The notes under the pieces: model-generated
Told to the model about the DNA's origin: nothing
The model's database searches: none
The model's input: the letters and a program-made list of their open reading frames with translations, nothing else
Position numbers and translations under genes: made by a program
In this document: one piece after another, positions 47,211-54,982 of the stretch
Layout of the letters: each line of letters starts with the position of its first letter
How positions within the stretch are numbered: position 1 is the stretch's first letter
Virus record (IMG/VR): IMGVR_UViG_3300045988_005753
Length of the DNA stretch: 64,000 nucleotides
Reading direction: 5' to 3' (one strand)
Source: a virus
Lineage: Duplodnaviria; Heunggongvirae; Uroviricota; Caudoviricetes

Positions 47211-47481
47211 AGAAAAGTGGGAGATTTTACCATTAGTCAGTGAAGGAGGCAATGGTTGTGAAATGTACATGATACGTGGTCATGTTCCAGAGCCAATCGC
47301 ACTTGAGATGGTAAACAACTTTACAGATGGTTCTTACAAAGACTTAGGCGAACCAACTGTCAAGCAACAATGGGTTAAACCTGTACCAGACAGCACAGGT
47401 AACTGTAGTGTACTTTATCACGTTGTAGACCCTGCAAAATGCAAATCTGCAATGGCAGTAACAAACGTAACTTTTGATTGA
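47203..47481 (+). CDS. hypothetical protein
   Basis: 92 aa ORF. Confidence 0.4.
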   Translation: MAKEKWEILPLVSEGGNGCEMYMIRGHVPEPIALEMVNNFTDGSYKDLGEPTVKQQWVKPVPDSTGNCSVLYHVVDPAKCKSAMAVTNVTFD

Positions 47482-48374
47482 GAGAGAAAACTATGAAAAC
47501 ATCTATACGTGTTACAGTTCATTCACCAACTAAAGGAACTCATGAAGAGGAGTTTAACATCATCCAATTTCCTTCTGGTGAGATTGGTGGACACTTTTCG
47601 CCAGAGTTTGTTGATTTTACTGCTTATGCAGCATCATCCATCAACAATGTGATTATGATTGTAAAAGGTTATGATAAAGACACATTGTTTGCTGTGGCAC
47701 TTGCTAAAGAAGCAATTGATGATTTAGTACCTCATAAGTTTGCTATGAAGACCATTATCTTTTACTATTTGCCAAATGCACGTTATGACCGTCACATGTT
47801 TAAAGGTGATGCAGCAGCTTTGAAAGTGTTTGCACAACAGGTTAATGCAATGGGTTTTGATGCAGTCTGTGCAGTTGACCCTCACAGCTATGTACCAGAT
47901 AACCTGTTTAACTGCTTCCAGAGTATTCCTCAAAAGGAAATTGCAGTCCACTATGCAAATGACCCACTGGTTGATTACTTAGTAGCCCCAGATGCAGGTG
48001 CTGCTAAGAAGATTGCAGAGACTGCTAAAGAGGTGGATAAACCATACATCACAATGTCTAAAGTGCGTAACCTTAAGACTGGTGAAATTACTGGTATGCG
48101 AATCCTTGATGATGTTGATTTGACAGATAAAACCGTCATGATTCTGGATGATATTTGTGATGGGGGCCGAACCTTCATAGAAGCAGCTAAACATCTTCGT
48201 GAAGCAGGTGCAAAACGTGTGGAACTCTATGTAACACATGGTATCTTCTCTAAAGATGTTGAAAACCTTCTTGACAACGGCATTGACCACATCTACACTA
48301 CAAACTCTTTAGGGGAAGCTAAAGACCGTGGTTTAACACATTATGGTCAAGTTACCGTAGCAAACCTTGATTAA
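47478..48374 (+). CDS. ribose-phosphate pyrophosphokinase family protein (Prs-like; possibly an ADP-ribose pyrophosphokinase)
   Basis: 298 aa; VMILDDICDGGRT matches the PRPP-binding motif; N-terminus diverges from housekeeping Prs. Confidence 0.65.
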   Translation: MREKTMKTSIRVTVHSPTKGTHEEEFNIIQFPSGEIGGHFSPEFVDFTAYAASSINNVIMIVKGYDKDTLFAVALAKEAIDDLVPHKFAMKTIIFYYLPNARYDRHMFKGDAAALKVFAQQVNAMGFDAVCAVDPHSYVPDNLFNCFQSIPQKEIAVHYANDPLVDYLVAPDAGAAKKIAETAKEVDKPYITMSKVRNLKTGEITGMRILDDVDLTDKTVMILDDICDGGRTFIEAAKHLREAGAKRVELYVTHGIFSKDVENLLDNGIDHIYTTNSLGEAKDRGLTHYGQVTVANLD

Positions 48375-48419: not shown

Positions 48420-50201
48420 ATGACTAAATCACTTTATGCAGTACCAGCAGGTTTAAACGCAGATGCTTACAAATCTGGTCACATCTACCAGTATCCTAGT
48501 GCAACAGAGTACTTGATGTTCAACCTGACACCACGTAGCGATAAATGGTTTAACAGCCCATTAGCAATTGATGGTGTAGTTGCTTTTGGTATTCAACGTT
48601 TTGTTAAAGATTACCTGATAGACCACTGGAACGCCACCTTCTTCGAACGTGACAAAAAAGAAGCAATTGACGAAATCTTAGAAGTCATGAATGGTGTTCT
48701 GGGTAAAGATGCTATTGGTCGAGAACATTGGGAAGCACTCCACGACTTAGGTTATCTACCAGTTGAAGTCTACGCTGTAGAAGAAGGAACAGTTGTCCCT
48801 ATGCGTGTACCAATGATTGTCTTCCAGAATACTGTTTCAGGTTTCCATTGGGTAGCGGGGTATCTGGAAGATGCTTTTTCTGCTGAGATTTGGAAGGCTT
48901 GTACCATTGCAACTATTGCATTGCACTACAAACGTATCTGTAAGAAGTGGTCTGACCTTACTTGTGACAACGACTTACATTTGCCTTATCAGTGCCATGA
49001 CTTTGCTATGCGTGGTATGTCCGGCTTTACTGATGACGCATTTAACGCTGTAGGCCACTTAACCAGCTTTAAAGGAACCGATAGCTTCCCTGCTGTATAC
49101 ACGGCTAAACGCATCTATGGACAGTCCTACCCAATTTCTGATATTGGCAGTTCTGTACCAGCCACTGAACACTCTGTAATGTGTGCAAACATTGCTTGGG
49201 AAGGTGGTAACGAGTTAATTGAAGAAGAAAGACGCTTTAAAGGTGAGTTACAAACCTTCCGTCGTTTCTTAACAGAAACTTACCCAACGGGTATTGCAAG
49301 TGTTGTTTCAGATACTTATAACTTCTGGAGAACTGTATCAGTCATATTACCAGAACTCCGTAAAGAGATTATGGAACGTAATGGCAAACTGGTAATTCGT
49401 CCTGATTCTGGAGACCCTGTACATATTGTCACAGGTTATAAAGCAATCCACTTAGAGTGTGCTAAAAAGGCTTATTACGAACACCTAAGCAAGCTGGAAG
49501 CCAGTGACACAATGTTGAATGCTGTTCTGAACATGAAGCTTGAGGATATTAACTATGGTATTGCTGGATGGCTACTGTCAGAAGGCTACGAAATGGTTGT
49601 TGACAGAGAAGACTTTGAAGTTGCTGACACAGTGATGTTGAAAAACGCTTATATGGTTGGTTCTGCAAACGTTGTAACACGTCCTGTAGCAGAGATTGAT
49701 GGGGCTATTAAGACCCTGTATAACATCTTTGGAGGGACTATCAACTCTAAAGGCTTTAAGGTACTTGATGAGCACATTGGACTCATCTATGGTGACTCTA
49801 TCACGTTGGAACGTGCAAACGAAATCCTGAAGCGTTTGTATGAAATGGGTTTTGCAAGCTCTAACGTAGTGTTTGGTGTAGGTTCTTACACTTACCAGTA
49901 CATGACTCGTGACACCTTTGCATTTGCTGTCAAAGCAACTCTTGCAAGCATTGGTGGTAAAGAGATTATGCTTGCAAAAGACCCTAAAACAGATAGTGGT
50001 GTTAAGAAGTCTGCTTTTGGTGGTGTAGCACCTATGTGGGATGGTGATAATCTGAAAGCTGTAGATGGTTATGGATTCCAGAGCTTTGAAGATGTACTTG
50101 AACATCCAGCTTGTGCTTTACGTTTAGTCTTTAGCGAATCTGAGCAGTTTGGCTACACAACTCTTGGAGATATTCGAAATAATATTGACAAGCAGCTTTA
50201 A
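48420..50201 (+). CDS. nicotinamide phosphoribosyltransferase family protein (Nampt/NadV-like)
   Basis: 593 aa; N-terminal ...ADAYKSGHIYQYP... and ...HDFAMRGMSG... resemble conserved Nampt motifs (DSYK...YP; DFGxRG). Confidence 0.7.
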   Translation: MTKSLYAVPAGLNADAYKSGHIYQYPSATEYLMFNLTPRSDKWFNSPLAIDGVVAFGIQRFVKDYLIDHWNATFFERDKKEAIDEILEVMNGVLGKDAIGREHWEALHDLGYLPVEVYAVEEGTVVPMRVPMIVFQNTVSGFHWVAGYLEDAFSAEIWKACTIATIALHYKRICKKWSDLTCDNDLHLPYQCHDFAMRGMSGFTDDAFNAVGHLTSFKGTDSFPAVYTAKRIYGQSYPISDIGSSVPATEHSVMCANIAWEGGNELIEEERRFKGELQTFRRFLTETYPTGIASVVSDTYNFWRTVSVILPELRKEIMERNGKLVIRPDSGDPVHIVTGYKAIHLECAKKAYYEHLSKLEASDTMLNAVLNMKLEDINYGIAGWLLSEGYEMVVDREDFEVADTVMLKNAYMVGSANVVTRPVAEIDGAIKTLYNIFGGTINSKGFKVLDEHIGLIYGDSITLERANEILKRLYEMGFASSNVVFGVGSYTYQYMTRDTFAFAVKATLASIGGKEIMLAKDPKTDSGVKKSAFGGVAPMWDGDNLKAVDGYGFQSFEDVLEHPACALRLVFSESEQFGYTTLGDIRNNIDKQL

Positions 50202-50215
50202 AAGTATATGATAAG

Positions 50216-50238
50216 AGGCTCCTACGGGAGCCTTTTTT
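50216..50238 (+). terminator. rho-independent terminator
   Basis: AGGCTCC, loop TACG, GGAGCCT, then TTTTTT. Confidence 0.6.
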
Positions 50239-50255: not shown

Positions 50256-50591
50256 ATGAAAATCAAAGAGATGAACATCAACATTGTCTTAGAAGAACGT
50301 TGGGAGAACATCAAGAAGCCTGAAAATGGTCATAAGTTCCTCAACAAAATCTTAGTAGCAGCTAAAGAAGAACTGACTGGCAAGGTTGCAGCAGCAATCA
50401 CAATAAAAGTTTGTGTAAAAGGTCTTCCAGACAATCACCAATTTGCACTTGACGTGTTTAAAGAAAACTTCTACAATCCAAACAAACAGATGCTTGAAAG
50501 TAACTTTGCAGTATCTACAAGTATCGTCCATGACAGAAGCTTTATCCTTTACAAAAATATGAGAGGTGAGTCATGCAAGCATATTGGGTAG
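50256..50591 (+). CDS. hypothetical protein
   Basis: 111 aa; GGAGA 5 nt upstream of the ATG. Confidence 0.4.
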   Translation: MKIKEMNINIVLEERWENIKKPENGHKFLNKILVAAKEELTGKVAAAITIKVCVKGLPDNHQFALDVFKENFYNPNKQMLESNFAVSTSIVHDRSFILYKNMRGESCKHIG

Positions 50592-50749
50592 AAATTTTAC
50601 TGTCACTTGGTAGTGTAGCAGTACTTGTTTACCTTCTTTGTAAGTACTTTGCAGAACACAAGAAGTGTGACTACTGTAACGGAGAAGGGTATACAAGAGC
50701 AGGTTGTTGCCCTATGTGTGGTGGTTCTGGTAAAATGTTTAATAAGTAA
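50573..50749 (+). CDS. small membrane-anchored protein with two CxxCxGxG zinc-finger motifs (58 aa, below the track cut-off)
   Basis: ATG at 50573 behind AGGTGA; N-terminal hydrophobic helix, then CDYCNGEG and CPMCGGSG, the DnaJ-type Cys-rich repeat pattern. Confidence 0.35.
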   Translation: MQAYWVEILLSLGSVAVLVYLLCKYFAEHKKCDYCNGEGYTRAGCCPMCGGSGKMFNK

Positions 50750-50777: not shown

Positions 50778-53144
50778 ATGCGCATGGTAAATGACCACGC
50801 AGAAGTGATTAAGAGTTCAACTTCTTTAGAGACGTCTCAAGCACAGATTACAATGACACCTGAGATGTTCAGCCTTTTGAGTTCTGGTGTATACACCTTT
50901 AAAGAAAGGGCAGTGATTCGTGAACTGTCATGTAACGCAGTAGATGCTCAGAAAGAAGCTGGAAAAGAGAACATTCCATTCCATGTGCATTTACCTACTC
51001 GTTTTGAGCCTTACTTCGAAGTTCGTGATTTTGGAACTGGATTGACTCATGATAAAGTTATGAGTTTGTACCTAAACTATGGAGCTTCTACGAAGAATGA
51101 CTCTAATGACTACATTGGTGCAATGGGTATCGGCTCAAAGTCACCATTTTCAATTGCTCAGTCATTCACAGTATCTAGCTATGTTGACGGTGTTGTTAAT
51201 AAGTACTCTGTTTATCTTGAGAATGGTATCCCTCAAGTAACTAAGCTGACAACTAACCCAACAAAAGAACCTAATGGTTTAGCTGTACGTGTGGCAGTTG
51301 CTGACCACCGTATCTCAAAGTTCTTTGAAGAAGCTGGGAATGTGTACTCATACTTCACTGTAAAACCAGAAAGTAATATTGAGTACGACGATGTATTAGC
51401 AGATATGAACGTCATTGCCCGTGAAGAAGGTGTTTATGATGCCATGATTCATAAGCAAAGCTGGCGTTCTAGTGGTAACAGGACAGAGTTTAATGTGGTG
51501 ATGGGTAACATTGCCTACCCTGTTAATATGGAAGCATTACTTGGTGATGATTTCTTCAAAGTATTGCCAGAATTTTTCCGTAGGAGCGTAGACCTTGTAA
51601 ACATCTACATGCCTATTGGTTCAGTTGCTATTGCAGCTTCTCGTGAAGCATTGCAGATGAATGACACGACAAAAAATGTTATCATTGAGGCTACTAAAAA
51701 GATAACTGAAGCAATTACAAAGGATGTTATCAAGAAAGTTAATAGCCAACCTACACTCATGGATGCTGCACAGGCTTATGCTGAGTTACGTTTGAACTCA
51801 CGAGAGATGTTTAATGCTGTGTGTCCAAAGCTAGAGTGGGGAGGTGTTAAGCTTGATTCTCTGGAAGAAGAATTACTAAACATTCGTCGTGGAATTATCT
51901 ACGCAGAAGACGGCTCAGTCATTTACGAACGTGACGGTAAAGGCAATATCAAGGTTGATAGGAACGGGAACAATATCCCTAAAGTAGATTATCTTTATGA
52001 CCCAGTTGCTTATGTCAAGTTCAACTCTTTAGAGAGTAAGATTCGTGCAACATCGCTTTCCTACACTCAAGAGGCAAGTATGTTCAATATCTTTGGCGCA
52101 ATGCGTAAAAGTCAAATTGAACAGTTTTTGTTTGTTATAAATGACCGTCGAAATAAAAATGGTACTGAGAAGACTGTAGGACGCAACCAAATCTTGCGTG
52201 GTGCATGTCGAGACTATGCCAGTGAGTCAAGTCTGTTTCACAGATACAATGGTATTGTCTTTGTATTCTCTACAGAGAAAGAGCTAGACGACTTAATCAA
52301 TCTGCACAAACTTGATAAAAGCTTGTTAAAGATTGTGAAGATGTCTGATAAGGAACATCATTATCAGCGTAAAGAAGCTGTAAGAGGCGTTGTAAAACTT
52401 TGGAAAGCTGTTCCAGCAGAAGGTGTAGCTTCCTATAAAGAGGTTTCAGAGGACTTAGATACGATTGAAGAGCCTCAGCTTTATATTAAGGCAGTAGGCG
52501 ACACAGTTGATGGCGAATGTTTTTGCTCATCTCCAGAAGATGTAGCTAAGTCAGTTGCCAATGTCATTGGAAAGAAAGTATATGTTTTCCGAAAAGCAAA
52601 TTGGAAAAAGATACCAGAAGACTGGATTGAAGTAGATGAGAAGCTCTTGAATGACAGCTTAACTGATGTTCACTGGATTAACCATAACAGGTATATGACA
52701 CGTATCTATATGAATGGTGTCCTTGACCTTACAAGCAGTTGGATTATTGCCAGAAACTTTACGTTCAATAACAGGAAGATTTCTCGTGGCTATTGTTATT
52801 CGCGGGATACAAACAAAACTATCTTCTTAGAAGGTAATGAAGATGCTGTAGAGGCAATGTTTGGTAAAATCCAATACGTTGCTGCACCATTTGCATACAC
52901 TTACATTATTAGTGTGTTGCAAGATTTGAAAAGGTGTCTTGATAATGATACAAAGCTTTACAAGAAAATTAAGAAAGCTGGTGACCGCATGGTCATTAAG
53001 GTGACAAACTACCTTTCAAAAAGAAAACAAGAAAACTTCTTGCTTTCTCATTTAGATTGGAATAAAGTGTCACCTATTGAAGTGAGTAAGTTCTTAGGCT
53101 TTGATGTGAAGTGTGTTCCAGAAGGGACTACAATTTACGATTAA
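50778..53144 (+). CDS. GHKL-family ATPase, rIIA-like
   Basis: 788 aa; RELSCNAVDA (N box, ExxxNAxDA), DFGTGL (G1 box) and GAMGIGSKS (G2 box) define a Bergerat-fold ATPase; a 369 aa partner gene follows. Confidence 0.5.
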   Translation: MRMVNDHAEVIKSSTSLETSQAQITMTPEMFSLLSSGVYTFKERAVIRELSCNAVDAQKEAGKENIPFHVHLPTRFEPYFEVRDFGTGLTHDKVMSLYLNYGASTKNDSNDYIGAMGIGSKSPFSIAQSFTVSSYVDGVVNKYSVYLENGIPQVTKLTTNPTKEPNGLAVRVAVADHRISKFFEEAGNVYSYFTVKPESNIEYDDVLADMNVIAREEGVYDAMIHKQSWRSSGNRTEFNVVMGNIAYPVNMEALLGDDFFKVLPEFFRRSVDLVNIYMPIGSVAIAASREALQMNDTTKNVIIEATKKITEAITKDVIKKVNSQPTLMDAAQAYAELRLNSREMFNAVCPKLEWGGVKLDSLEEELLNIRRGIIYAEDGSVIYERDGKGNIKVDRNGNNIPKVDYLYDPVAYVKFNSLESKIRATSLSYTQEASMFNIFGAMRKSQIEQFLFVINDRRNKNGTEKTVGRNQILRGACRDYASESSLFHRYNGIVFVFSTEKELDDLINLHKLDKSLLKIVKMSDKEHHYQRKEAVRGVVKLWKAVPAEGVASYKEVSEDLDTIEEPQLYIKAVGDTVDGECFCSSPEDVAKSVANVIGKKVYVFRKANWKKIPEDWIEVDEKLLNDSLTDVHWINHNRYMTRIYMNGVLDLTSSWIIARNFTFNNRKISRGYCYSRDTNKTIFLEGNEDAVEAMFGKIQYVAAPFAYTYIISVLQDLKRCLDNDTKLYKKIKKAGDRMVIKVTNYLSKRKQENFLLSHLDWNKVSPIEVSKFLGFDVKCVPEGTTIYD

Positions 53145-53149
53145 AGTGT

Positions 53150-53179
53150 TTGACAAGGGGCTTTGAAGCCCCTTAGAAT
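53150..53179 (+). promoter_or_regulatory. sigma70-like promoter TTGACA-N18-TAGAAT with a GC hairpin in the spacer
   Basis: TTGACA 53150-53155; TAGAAT 53174-53179; GGGGCTT/AAGCCCC inverted repeat inside the spacer. Confidence 0.4.
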
Positions 53180-53223
53180 ATCCTCACAAAATGATTTATT
53201 AACTAACAAGAGAGAGTAATAAG

Positions 53224-54333
53224 ATGACTACTAAAACTAAAGCACAGATTGACGCAGAAATTTACAAACTGGTTAAAGAAGGTAAGCTGACTAAAACAGC
53301 TATTGCACAGAAATTTAATACTTCAACCCGTTCAGTCGGTCGTGCTGTAGAGCGTCATGAAGCAACCTTAAAAGGTAAGAAAAAGGTTGCTTCTACACCA
53401 GCTACGAAGACTTTGAAGCAAGTTGCTAAGACCTTTAAGAAGAAAGCTGACAAACCAGTTGAAAAGGTAGTTAAAGATGCTGTACAGAAAGCTCCAGTAA
53501 ATAAACTGCACGAAGCTATGCAGAAAGATGACAAGATTGAGTACATGATTACTGGTGATTCTGTAATTATGACTTATGGTTCAGAATCTGAAATTGTTGA
53601 GTCTACTCATCCGAACTATCAAGAGATTGTAGTTCATGTTGTGAAAGGTGAGTTCAAGAAAGCATTTGAACTGATGAACATTCGTAAGTCTATCGAAAAC
53701 TTCACTCAGGGTGCTATCACAATCAAAGGTGACAAGCTATTCTACGGTGCTGTTGAGATGCGTTCTACTCTGGTTGACCGTATTCTTCACATGATGAAAA
53801 CTGGTGATAAAGGTTTTGAACGACTTGTAATGTTCTTCGAAAAACTGATGGAAAACCCATCTAAAGATTCTGTAGAACAACTTTGGGGATTTGTATCTCA
53901 CCTTGATGTTGAAATTGATGAAGAAGGCTACATCATTGGTTGGAAGAAAGTCTCTACTCGTGAAGGCAAGCTGGTTGACTCTCACACCTACAAAGTACCT
54001 AATGATTTGGGTAACATTGTAGAGATGCCACGTTGGATGGTTGATAATAACCGTAACGTAACTTGCTCTCAAGGTCTTCATGTTGGTGCTTGGGATTACG
54101 TTCGTTGCTTCTCAGGTGATACCATCCTGAAGGTTCGTGTCCATCCACGAGATGTTGTATCTGTTCCAACTGATTACAACGATATGAAGATGCGTTCCTC
54201 TCGTTATGAAGTTGCAGCAATCGTTGATAATCAACGTAAAGTACTGAAAGCATGGGATGGTAAGACTGAAGCTTTGCATGTCATCGTTGGCACTGCTGGT
54301 GAACTCATCTCTCAACGTAAACGTGAAATCTAA
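53224..54333 (+). CDS. hypothetical protein, rIIB-like by position
   Basis: 369 aa gene directly after the GHKL ATPase. Confidence 0.3.
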   Translation: MTTKTKAQIDAEIYKLVKEGKLTKTAIAQKFNTSTRSVGRAVERHEATLKGKKKVASTPATKTLKQVAKTFKKKADKPVEKVVKDAVQKAPVNKLHEAMQKDDKIEYMITGDSVIMTYGSESEIVESTHPNYQEIVVHVVKGEFKKAFELMNIRKSIENFTQGAITIKGDKLFYGAVEMRSTLVDRILHMMKTGDKGFERLVMFFEKLMENPSKDSVEQLWGFVSHLDVEIDEEGYIIGWKKVSTREGKLVDSHTYKVPNDLGNIVEMPRWMVDNNRNVTCSQGLHVGAWDYVRCFSGDTILKVRVHPRDVVSVPTDYNDMKMRSSRYEVAAIVDNQRKVLKAWDGKTEALHVIVGTAGELISQRKREI

Positions 54334-54349
54334 TAAGTAATTTCTTAAA

Positions 54350-54372
54350 AGGCTGCTTCGGCGGCCTTTTTT
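54350..54372 (+). terminator. rho-independent terminator
   Basis: AGGCTGC, loop TTCG, GCGGCCT (one G-U wobble), then TTTTTT. Confidence 0.6.
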
Positions 54373-54374
54373 AT

Positions 54375-54402
54375 TTGTATTTTGTGCAGAGTGCTGTATA
54401 AT
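54375..54402 (+). promoter_or_regulatory. promoter candidate with consensus -10 TATAAT and weak -35
   Basis: TATAAT at 54397-54402; best -35 is TTGTAT at 54375-54380 with a 16-nt spacer. Confidence 0.35.
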
Positions 54403-54433: not shown

Positions 54434-54982
54434 ATGAAGAAATTGATTCTAGGCTTGTGCTTAATGTTTACAGCACACTTATCTTATGCAGTTGACTGCC
54501 CAGAGCTAACAATTAGCCAAAAAGTAAACATGTTAAAAGCTTACCAGTATGGTGAGAATAATATGGGGAAAGGCTGGGGTATTACTCTAGCAGCTATAGC
54601 CTTACAAGAGTCAGAGTTAGGTCTGAAGGTAGAGAATAAAAAGACCCACGACTATGGTATTTTCCAGAATCACTTGAAGACTGTTGTAAAGCGTAACAAA
54701 ATTAGTCCTAATGTGGCTAAAAAGAAACTCTTAAAAGACTTTGACTATGCAGCAAAAGAGACACATAAAGAGCTTGAGTTTTGGACTAAGGTGCATGGTC
54801 ACCCAAAGTCAAAGAAGACTTTACAAAAAGTTTTAGCATCATATAATGCTGGGTATTCGTACAAAATCCCTAAAGCTAAGAAATACTCTCAAGATGTCTA
54901 TAACAATATGAAAGTTATCGCTCAATGTGAATTTGCAACAAACATTTCTAAGGTAAATCATGAAAAAATTAAGAAAGTCTGA
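54434..54982 (+). CDS. secreted lytic transglycosylase (SLT-domain) protein
   Basis: Signal peptide MKKLILGLCLMFTAHLSYA; IALQESEL (catalytic Glu-Ser), DYGIFQ and ASYNAGYS resemble the ES / GLMQ / AYNxG motifs of SLT domains. Confidence 0.5.
   Translation: MKKLILGLCLMFTAHLSYAVDCPELTISQKVNMLKAYQYGENNMGKGWGITLAAIALQESELGLKVENKKTHDYGIFQNHLKTVVKRNKISPNVAKKKLLKDFDYAAKETHKELEFWTKVHGHPKSKKTLQKVLASYNAGYSYKIPKAKKYSQDVYNNMKVIAQCEFATNISKVNHEKIKKV

Follow-up and report, generated by a model that had tools for sequence, protein, structure and literature searches.

Two adjoining genes at positions 50778-54333 of the virus record IMGVR_UViG_3300045988_005753 (IMG/VR) raise the question of whether a GHKL ATPase and its downstream partner form the rIIA-rIIB pair known from phage T4 or belong to a different two-gene system. 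We analyzed a stretch of 64,000 nucleotides from this record, here called the window. The pair is almost certainly an rIIA-rIIB module, a two-gene phage counter-defence system. Taking identity, role and proposed mechanism together, we give this explanation a probability of roughly 0.9. The pair is already known, being annotated in related genomes and tested genetically in close orthologues. What we add is the anatomy of the RIIA ATPase module, the three-part layout of RIIB and the lack of a transmembrane helix in either protein. The two genes are:

50778-53144, plus strand: rIIA gene, 788 amino acids, ATG start, assigned by PHROG 612 and by BLASTP to T4
53224-54333, plus strand: rIIB gene, 369 amino acids, ATG start, assigned by PHROG 609 and by BLASTP to T4

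The two proteins match T4 RIIA and RIIB

An earlier note, made from the letters of this DNA, had called open reading frames (ORFs) of 788 and 369 amino acids, and both are confirmed. The rIIA gene lies upstream of rIIB and adjoins it on the same strand, with 79 nucleotides between the reading frames. Thousands of homologues for each gene exclude chance ORFs; a tblastn search over 50,697 phage records found rIIA relatives in 2,926 and rIIB relatives in 2,911.

RIIA matches the PHROG 612 family ("RIIA") with an E value of 1e-189 over residues 1-770, and RIIB matches PHROG 609 ("RIIB") at 3.6e-89. The rIIA and rIIB proteins of T4 itself (from NC_000866) have these same two families as their best matches. 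Direct BLASTP comparison with T4 gave 32% identity over residues 24-317 of RIIA (E 4e-37) and 37% identity over residues 11-339 of RIIB (E 4e-61). These results support the proposal of an rIIA/rIIB-like pair, and the profile comparison with the rII families that the earlier note had called for places the ATPase with RIIA and its partner with RIIB. The same note held that, apart from the ATPase boxes, the assignment was positional. The boxes are real, but this understated the evidence: the rIIB match covers almost the whole protein, and as each protein can be matched directly to its T4 prototype, the assignment no longer depends on position.

General domain searches saw much less. Pfam-A alone gave HATPase_c at E 0.12 for RIIA and weak helix-turn-helix (HTH) matches for RIIB, all below the cut-offs. 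PF26926 is recorded for a cluster representative 98% identical to RIIB, and a local Pfam scan of RIIB did not match it. Single-sequence phmmer searches against PDB sequences returned nothing for RIIA and noise for RIIB.

That the pair might be some other GHKL two-gene conflict system carried by the phage, for instance a MORC-like or Tiamat-like relative, was the alternative left by the earlier note. GHKL modules are indeed widespread in conflict systems, and a PADLOC scan gave RIIA a weak match to TmtA (E 6e-9). The match covers residues 20-134 against a model of 1302 positions, which is the ATP-binding core only, and the same scan returned zero matches for RIIB. With both proteins strongly matching the T4 rII proteins and the PHROG families, we rejected TmtA as an identity and regard this alternative as refuted, with next to no probability left to it.

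By its sequence, the window is a Felixounavirus (Felix O1-like phage). Among the matches listed, Felix O1-like phages that infect Escherichia and Salmonella share 96-97% DNA identity with its 3.6-kb rII region, and in 211 records one match spans at least 80% of that region. Most annotated records among the matches listed name the pair "RIIA/RIIB lysis inhibitor" or an equivalent, and gene 1 of Felix O1 has been called rIIA since the 2010 genome paper (PMC3185647). No tRNA genes were found in the 64-kb window.

Two side observations concern these comparisons. The PhageMaP preprint describes gp84 and gp85 of the Felixounavirus Bas63 as having "high sequence homology (>80%)" to T4 RIIA/B (10.1101/2024.10.10.617714); we measured 32% between Felixounavirus and T4 for RIIA, in the N-terminal 300 residues only, and 37% for RIIB. 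Contingency-locus homopolymers have been reported in T4 rIIA (10.1101/2025.10.21.683753). The rII genes here show no homopolymer enrichment, with one A6 run in rIIA (at 51671), none in rIIB, and a density of 0.29 per kb vs 0.72 per kb for the window.

RIIA carries a complete two-domain ATPase module

The N, G1 and G2 boxes named by the earlier note were all located, with their residues intact. We compared RIIA in two alignments, one of 10 N-termini from six phage lineages and one of 114 database relatives. Twelve positions are invariant in both: E49, N53, D56, D84, G86, G114, G117, G119, K121, Y247, R289 and E290. The parts of RIIA are:

50778-51767, plus strand: N-terminal ATPase module, residues 1-330, a Bergerat-fold GHKL domain with a transducer or middle-type second domain
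50922-50945, plus strand: N box, E49-LSC-N53-AV-D56, with the catalytic Glu and the Mg-binding Asn; E49, N53 and D56 invariant in 114 sequences
51027-51041, plus strand: G1 box, D84-F-G-T-G88; D84 and G86 invariant, G88 conserved in at least 90%
51117-51140, plus strand: G2 box, G114-AM-G117-I-G119-S-K121; G114, G117, G119 and K121 invariant
51639-51647, plus strand: S288-R289-E290 loop; R289 and E290 invariant, S288 conserved in at least 90%
51768-53141, plus strand: C-terminal half, residues 331-788, specific to the Ounavirinae lineage

When the 10-sequence rIIA N-terminal profile was run against PDB sequences, it found the N-domains of Hsp90 proteins: HtpG with an E value of 9.6e-16, TRAP1 with about 2.5e-13 and Grp94 with about 1e-11. 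A second, co-linear stretch of the profile-HtpG alignment puts S288-R289-E290 on HtpG residues 335-337. R289 would thereby fall on R336 of HtpG, in a stretch that is not significant on its own. R336 in E. coli (R380 in yeast) is the catalytic arginine in a loop of the Hsp90 middle domain, where it touches the gamma-phosphate of ATP.

The AlphaFold2 model of RIIA has a mean predicted local distance difference test score (pLDDT) of 90.1. Searched for structural relatives, its ATPase module scored as follows:

TRAP1, 19.0 (327 residues aligned)
MORC2, 18.7
MORC3, 18.3
SMCHD1, 17.5
Topo VI-B, 17.2
phage T6 topoisomerase II ATPase, 16.6
MutL, 15.5

These relatives confirm the Bergerat fold by structure, and the module is closest to Hsp90/TRAP1 and MORC. 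As modelled, residues 1-330 are a complete module, in which the catalytic loop comes from a second domain next to the ATP-binding domain. The model shows residues 331-788 as well folded, and they have no other PDB match. BLASTP against T4 rIIA gave only noise past residue 317, and hhalign of an Ounavirinae RIIA C-terminal profile against the T4 C-terminus gave an E value of 0.12 with a probability of 0.5%, so that similarity is undetectable. As the literature calls the rIIA C-terminus "highly variable" (PMC7824862), a T4-like C-terminal half is not a defining trait of rIIA.

RIIB joins a helix-turn-helix to an orphan domain

The RIIB model, with a mean pLDDT of 84.1, divides into three parts:

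53239-53370, plus strand: N-terminal helix-turn-helix domain, residues 6-49, three helices in the model
53377-53496, plus strand: disordered lysine-rich linker, residues 52-91, pLDDT below 50
53533-54330, plus strand: C-terminal alpha/beta domain, residues about 104-369, confident in the model and found solely in RIIB proteins

The HTH resembles the DNA-binding domains of sigma region 4, LuxR and DeoR. The segment that follows is strongly basic, with 15 Lys/Arg against 5 Asp/Glu in residues 46-100. The C-terminal domain is large and conserved, and we recognized no known effector-binding domain in it. A transmembrane helix was sought in both proteins and none was found; over 19-residue windows, the Kyte-Doolittle score peaks at 1.29 in RIIA and at 0.69 in RIIB.

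Orthologues are needed only where a defence system is present

Close and distant orthologues of the pair have been tested genetically. On QatABCD hosts, the efficiency of plating of phage Bas63 falls 10^4-10^5-fold when either rII gene is deleted, and complementation brings most of it back (PhageMaP preprint, 10.1101/2024.10.10.617714). CRISPRi-ART was used to knock down rIIA or rIIB in T4, MM02, EdH4, SUSP1 and N4, and plating was reduced only when the host expressed lambda RexAB (PMC11879866). By analogy with these orthologues, rIIA and rIIB would be dispensable on plain hosts, and each would be needed on hosts with RexAB or QatABCD.

RIIB has also been studied separately. T6 RIIB alone is toxic on overexpression and is a sufficient trigger of a CARD-gasdermin defence; mutants escaping the CARD-gasdermin system map to T6 rIIB and gain sensitivity to RexAB (10.1101/2023.05.28.542683).

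A proposed trigger-masking clamp and its alternatives

The earlier note called the mechanism unresolved, and rII papers do still describe it as unknown or poorly understood. We propose that RIIA and RIIB act as one complex, because a natural fusion exists: in phage RB43, RIIA-RIIB is a single protein of 1049 amino acids. The PHROG 609 profile has 1055 positions, of which T4 rIIA matches 19-310 and T4 rIIB matches 751-1049; RIIB of the window lies on the same segment of the profile as T4 rIIB. The cycle of ATP binding and hydrolysis in RIIA would drive the closing and opening of a dimeric clamp; every one of the nearest structural relatives of the ATPase module is an ATP-gated dimeric clamp. 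The complex may then work upstream of the defence effectors, by masking or remodelling an infection-specific nucleoprotein signal that is sensed, for example, by RexA. Since one module defeats the unrelated RexAB and QatABCD systems, a shared upstream signal is a better candidate target than each effector in turn. A nucleoprotein signal is favoured because RIIB has an HTH and because RexA is a DNA-binding protein (PMC11077077). We hold this trigger-masking step tentatively, at somewhat below even odds.

Several points weigh against a nucleoprotein-directed clamp. All functional data come from orthologues. In the rII papers we found no report that RIIB binds DNA or that any RIIA has ATPase activity. 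By sequence, the ATPase module is most strongly related to the Hsp90 protein chaperones and not to DNA enzymes, so a model with protein clients fits at least as well. RIIB is active without RIIA, since by itself it is toxic and triggers CARD-gasdermin. The classical literature has the rII proteins associated with the membrane, which points to membrane action. For QatABCD, too, the PhageMaP authors propose depolarisation of the membrane, by QatB (10.1101/2024.10.10.617714).

In a second model the rII proteins are "membrane integrity protectors" that work at the inner membrane, where they directly prevent or repair depolarisation by RexB or by a putative membrane component of QatABCD. GenBank notes use those very words, RexAB works through membrane depolarisation (PMC11879866), and several Ounavirinae carry a small ORF, predicted to be membrane-anchored, directly before rIIA. 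Neither RIIA nor RIIB has a transmembrane helix, however, and their folds, a soluble clamp of the GHKL type and an HTH protein, have no likeness to a channel blocker. We consider membrane protection, the classical view, less likely than not, a little behind trigger masking. The kinship with Hsp90 can also be taken at face value: RIIA would be an ATP-driven clamp that catches protein clients, either defence sensors or the phage proteins that trigger them, and RIIB would be its adaptor or co-chaperone. We regard this as unlikely.

Two further accounts place the function of the pair outside counter-defence or make it indirect. RIIB could chiefly be a transcription factor that tunes phage expression, with RIIA as an accessory. 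The HTH, with its sigma region 4, LuxR and DeoR likeness, would suit this role, and rIIB is one of the phage-specific transcription factors in the list of Iyer et al. (2021) (PMC7824862). But phages with rII deleted or knocked down plate normally on hosts that lack the defence system, and the C-terminal domain is of no known effector-binding type, which leaves such a role rather improbable. The database label "lysis inhibitor" suggests instead that the pair genuinely inhibits lysis, by delaying the triggering of the holin. GenBank and PHROG product names carry the label, and spanin genes lie 1.8 kb downstream. The label is historical, however, and goes back to the "r" plaque type, for rapid lysis; in the absence of Rex, phages with rII knocked down show normal plating (PMC11879866), and the T4 GenBank note ascribes the rapid-lysis phenotype to prophage genes. 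We give very little credence to a function in lysis.

Promoter-like sites, stem-loops and a terminator frame the pair

The TTGACA-N18-TAGAAT site that the earlier note placed between the two genes is present. As a promoter it is putative, and promoter-like sites are frequent across the region (42 found vs 25 expected from shuffles). The signals around the pair are:

50185-50212, plus strand: promoter-like site TTGACA-N16-TATGAT, 11 of 12 consensus positions, between the end of the NAMPT (nicotinamide phosphoribosyltransferase) gene, at its stop codon, and the first of the small ORFs
53150-53179, plus strand: promoter-like site TTGACA-N18-TAGAAT before rIIB, 11 of 12 consensus positions
53156-53173, plus strand: stem-loop AGGGGCT-TTGA-AGCCCCT inside the spacer of the rIIB site, with a G+C stem of 7-8 bp
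54347-54378, plus strand: strong intrinsic terminator after rIIB, a 10-bp stem (5 G-C pairs), a 4-nucleotide loop and a T-run

Transcripts of rIIA probably begin at the 50185-50212 site and cross two small ORFs first. Judging from the letters, rIIB would additionally have a promoter of its own, and the unit ends at the terminator behind it. The GGCTGCTTCGGCGGCC stem-loop and T-rich tail of this terminator are those of Felix O1 terminator t2 (PMC3185647).

The hexamers of the rIIB site are identical in Bas63 and SeKF_63; in SUSP1 the first hexamer is shifted by one base. The hairpin in its spacer has a predicted stability of -11.6 kcal/mol, by far the highest among 27 sites of the TTGAC[AT] type in the window, where the runner-up reaches -4.8. 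Its stem is unchanged in Bas63, SeKF_63 and SUSP1, and its loop varies (TTGA here, TCAA in Bas63, GAAA in SUSP1). The distant Ounavirinae LPML1 and Wc4-1 have a stem-loop in the rIIA-rIIB gap too, there enclosing a -10-like hexamer; the stem-loops in the gap of distant Ounavirinae lie at 5365-5395 in L012 (LPML1) and at 3010-3035 in L013. The hairpin may end or stabilize the rIIA message, or may modulate the promoter. We considered it as a canonical terminator of rIIA and rejected it, as it has no T-run and was not called by the terminator scan.

Similar arrangements occur elsewhere in the window. A T-run terminator-like hairpin at 50213-50236 directly follows the promoter-like site at 50185-50212, making another tight promoter/stem-loop pair. 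Between 59182 and 63990 (plus strand), promoter-plus-stem cassettes recur before small ORFs. One family (D2, four copies) has TTTACA followed by a GGGGCTTA...TAAGCCCC stem that encloses the spacer and the -10. The other (D1, four copies) has TTGACA-N17-TAAATT, then a GGGGAGGG/CCTTCCCC hairpin, a conserved leader and a ribosome binding site; its leader and ribosome binding site together read TCCTAAACTGGAGATTCTAAAATG, in 5-7 copies. These cassettes appear to resemble the promoter-early stem-loop (PeSL) cassettes known from T4-type phages.

Neighbouring genes

50573-50749, plus strand: ORF of 58 amino acids directly before rIIA, with a hydrophobic N-terminal segment (WVEILLSLGSVAVLVYLLCKYF) and two CxxCxGxG motifs
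47478-48374, plus strand: gene similar to phosphoribosyl pyrophosphate (PRPP) synthetase (Pfam Pribosyltran, Pribosyl_synth), upstream of the rII unit
48420-50201, plus strand: NAMPT gene (NAPRTase, NAMPT_N), upstream of the rII unit
54434-54982, plus strand: ORF of 182 amino acids after rIIB, with a signal-peptide-like N-terminus, PHROG 600 (function unknown)

The 58-amino-acid ORF carries the DnaJ-type motifs CDYCNGEG and CPMCGGSG. It matches PHROG 3931 (function unknown) with an E value of 4e-33, and its match to Pfam DnaJ_CXXCXGXG is weak (E 0.0065; 6e-5 for the Wc4-1 copy; both below cut-off). Bas63, SUSP1 and Pectobacterium phage Wc4-1 have it in this position, whereas LPML1 and T4 do not. 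A tblastn search found it in 258 records, nearly all Felix O1-like phages of enterobacteria. An association of the ORF with the rII proteins is possible but unproven. It is curious to see a candidate zinc-finger DnaJ-like mini-protein beside an Hsp90-like ATPase, and we regard the pairing as a lead and not as a result. Followed to its end, this lead would make RIIA specifically an Hsp90-type clamp, with its SRE arginine loop, that teams up in Ounavirinae with RIIB and a DnaJ-like, membrane-anchored 58-amino-acid protein and counters several unrelated abortive-infection systems by neutralizing their triggers or sensors. We rate this as a long shot. If true, such a three-part, membrane-tethered, chaperone-like machine would offer a concrete biochemical model for the 70-year-old rII problem, and would explain the "membrane association" of proteins without a transmembrane segment.

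The Bas63 equivalents of the PRPP-synthetase-like and NAMPT genes, g79 and g80, are reported counters of the NAD-depleting Sir2-HerA defence. Together with rIIA/rIIB and a downstream polynucleotide kinase, the two genes form what looks like a counter-defence neighbourhood. As to the 182-amino-acid ORF, it has a weak, below-cut-off match to an SLT lytic transglycosylase (E 0.0013), and its position is kept in Bas63, SUSP1 and SeKF_63.

Use of the domain anatomy

The annotation of the genes is unaffected by our analysis, as the names rIIA and rIIB are already in use for this well-sampled phage genus. The interest lies in the mechanism of rII, a widespread module. Felixounavirus rII is among the few with a clean deletion phenotype (Bas63 on QatABCD hosts). 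The domain anatomy, with an Hsp90/MORC-like ATPase and arginine loop in RIIA and an HTH and orphan domain in RIIB, defines point mutants that would separate the mechanisms discussed above.

Comparison with known systems

The nearest named system is that of Bas63 (Escherichia phage JohannRWettstein, MZ501086), a Felixounavirus in which rIIA is gp84 (bas63_0084) and rIIB is gp85 (bas63_0085). Its RIIA is 97.7% and its RIIB 83.0% identical to the window proteins. The gene order is shared: PRPP synthetase-like gene, NAMPT, small ORFs, rIIA, rIIB, an ORF of phrog_600, polynucleotide kinase and spanins. Between its two rII genes, Bas63 has an identical promoter-like site and stem. The differences are the loop of the hairpin, the divergence of RIIB at 17% of positions, and three small ORFs before rIIA in Bas63 vs two in the window.

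Escherichia phage phiSUSP1, from another genus of the Ounavirinae, has full-length, co-linear orthologues (RIIA 63%, RIIB 80% identical), and shares the neighbourhood and the promoter-plus-stem design; the C-terminal half of its RIIA has clearly diverged. The two genes thus diverge unevenly: against Bas63 RIIA is the closer of the two (97.7% vs 83%), and against SUSP1 RIIB is (80% vs 63%). This suggests recombination (mosaicism) between rIIA and rIIB, possibly at the intergenic cassette. A more distant member of the subfamily is recorded as "Listeria phage LPML1" (OK283618.1, 87 kb, Ounavirinae). Its rIIA relative is full-length, with 35% identity across 97% of the query, and the rIIB position is taken by a gene of 531 amino acids. 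A Listeria host is atypical here, where the subfamily's other matches all come from phages of Gram-negative hosts, and the label may need checking.

T4 shares with the window the PHROG families, the gene order and adjacency, the GHKL boxes in RIIA residues 24-317, and RIIB including its HTH. In contrast to T4, RIIB of the window has an extra lysine-rich linker of about 50 residues, and the small ORF upstream is unrelated, rIIA.1 of T4 being a soluble helical protein.

Beyond phages, the module resembles two groups of ATPases. From the MORC, SMCHD1, MutL and type II topoisomerase families RIIA differs in having no CW, coiled-coil, Toprim or endonuclease domain. Lysine is the typical transducer residue of these families, whereas the conserved residue of RIIA is the arginine of the SRE loop. 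From the Hsp90 family (HtpG, TRAP1, Grp94) RIIA differs by its unrelated C-terminal half of 450 residues, in which no match to the Hsp90 C-terminal dimerisation domain was seen, and identity in the structural alignments is 13-14%. When the literature was searched for rIIA and Hsp90 jointly, papers on Fc receptors were all that came up. We read the likeness of RIIA to Hsp90 as a structural and mechanistic analogy, not as family membership.

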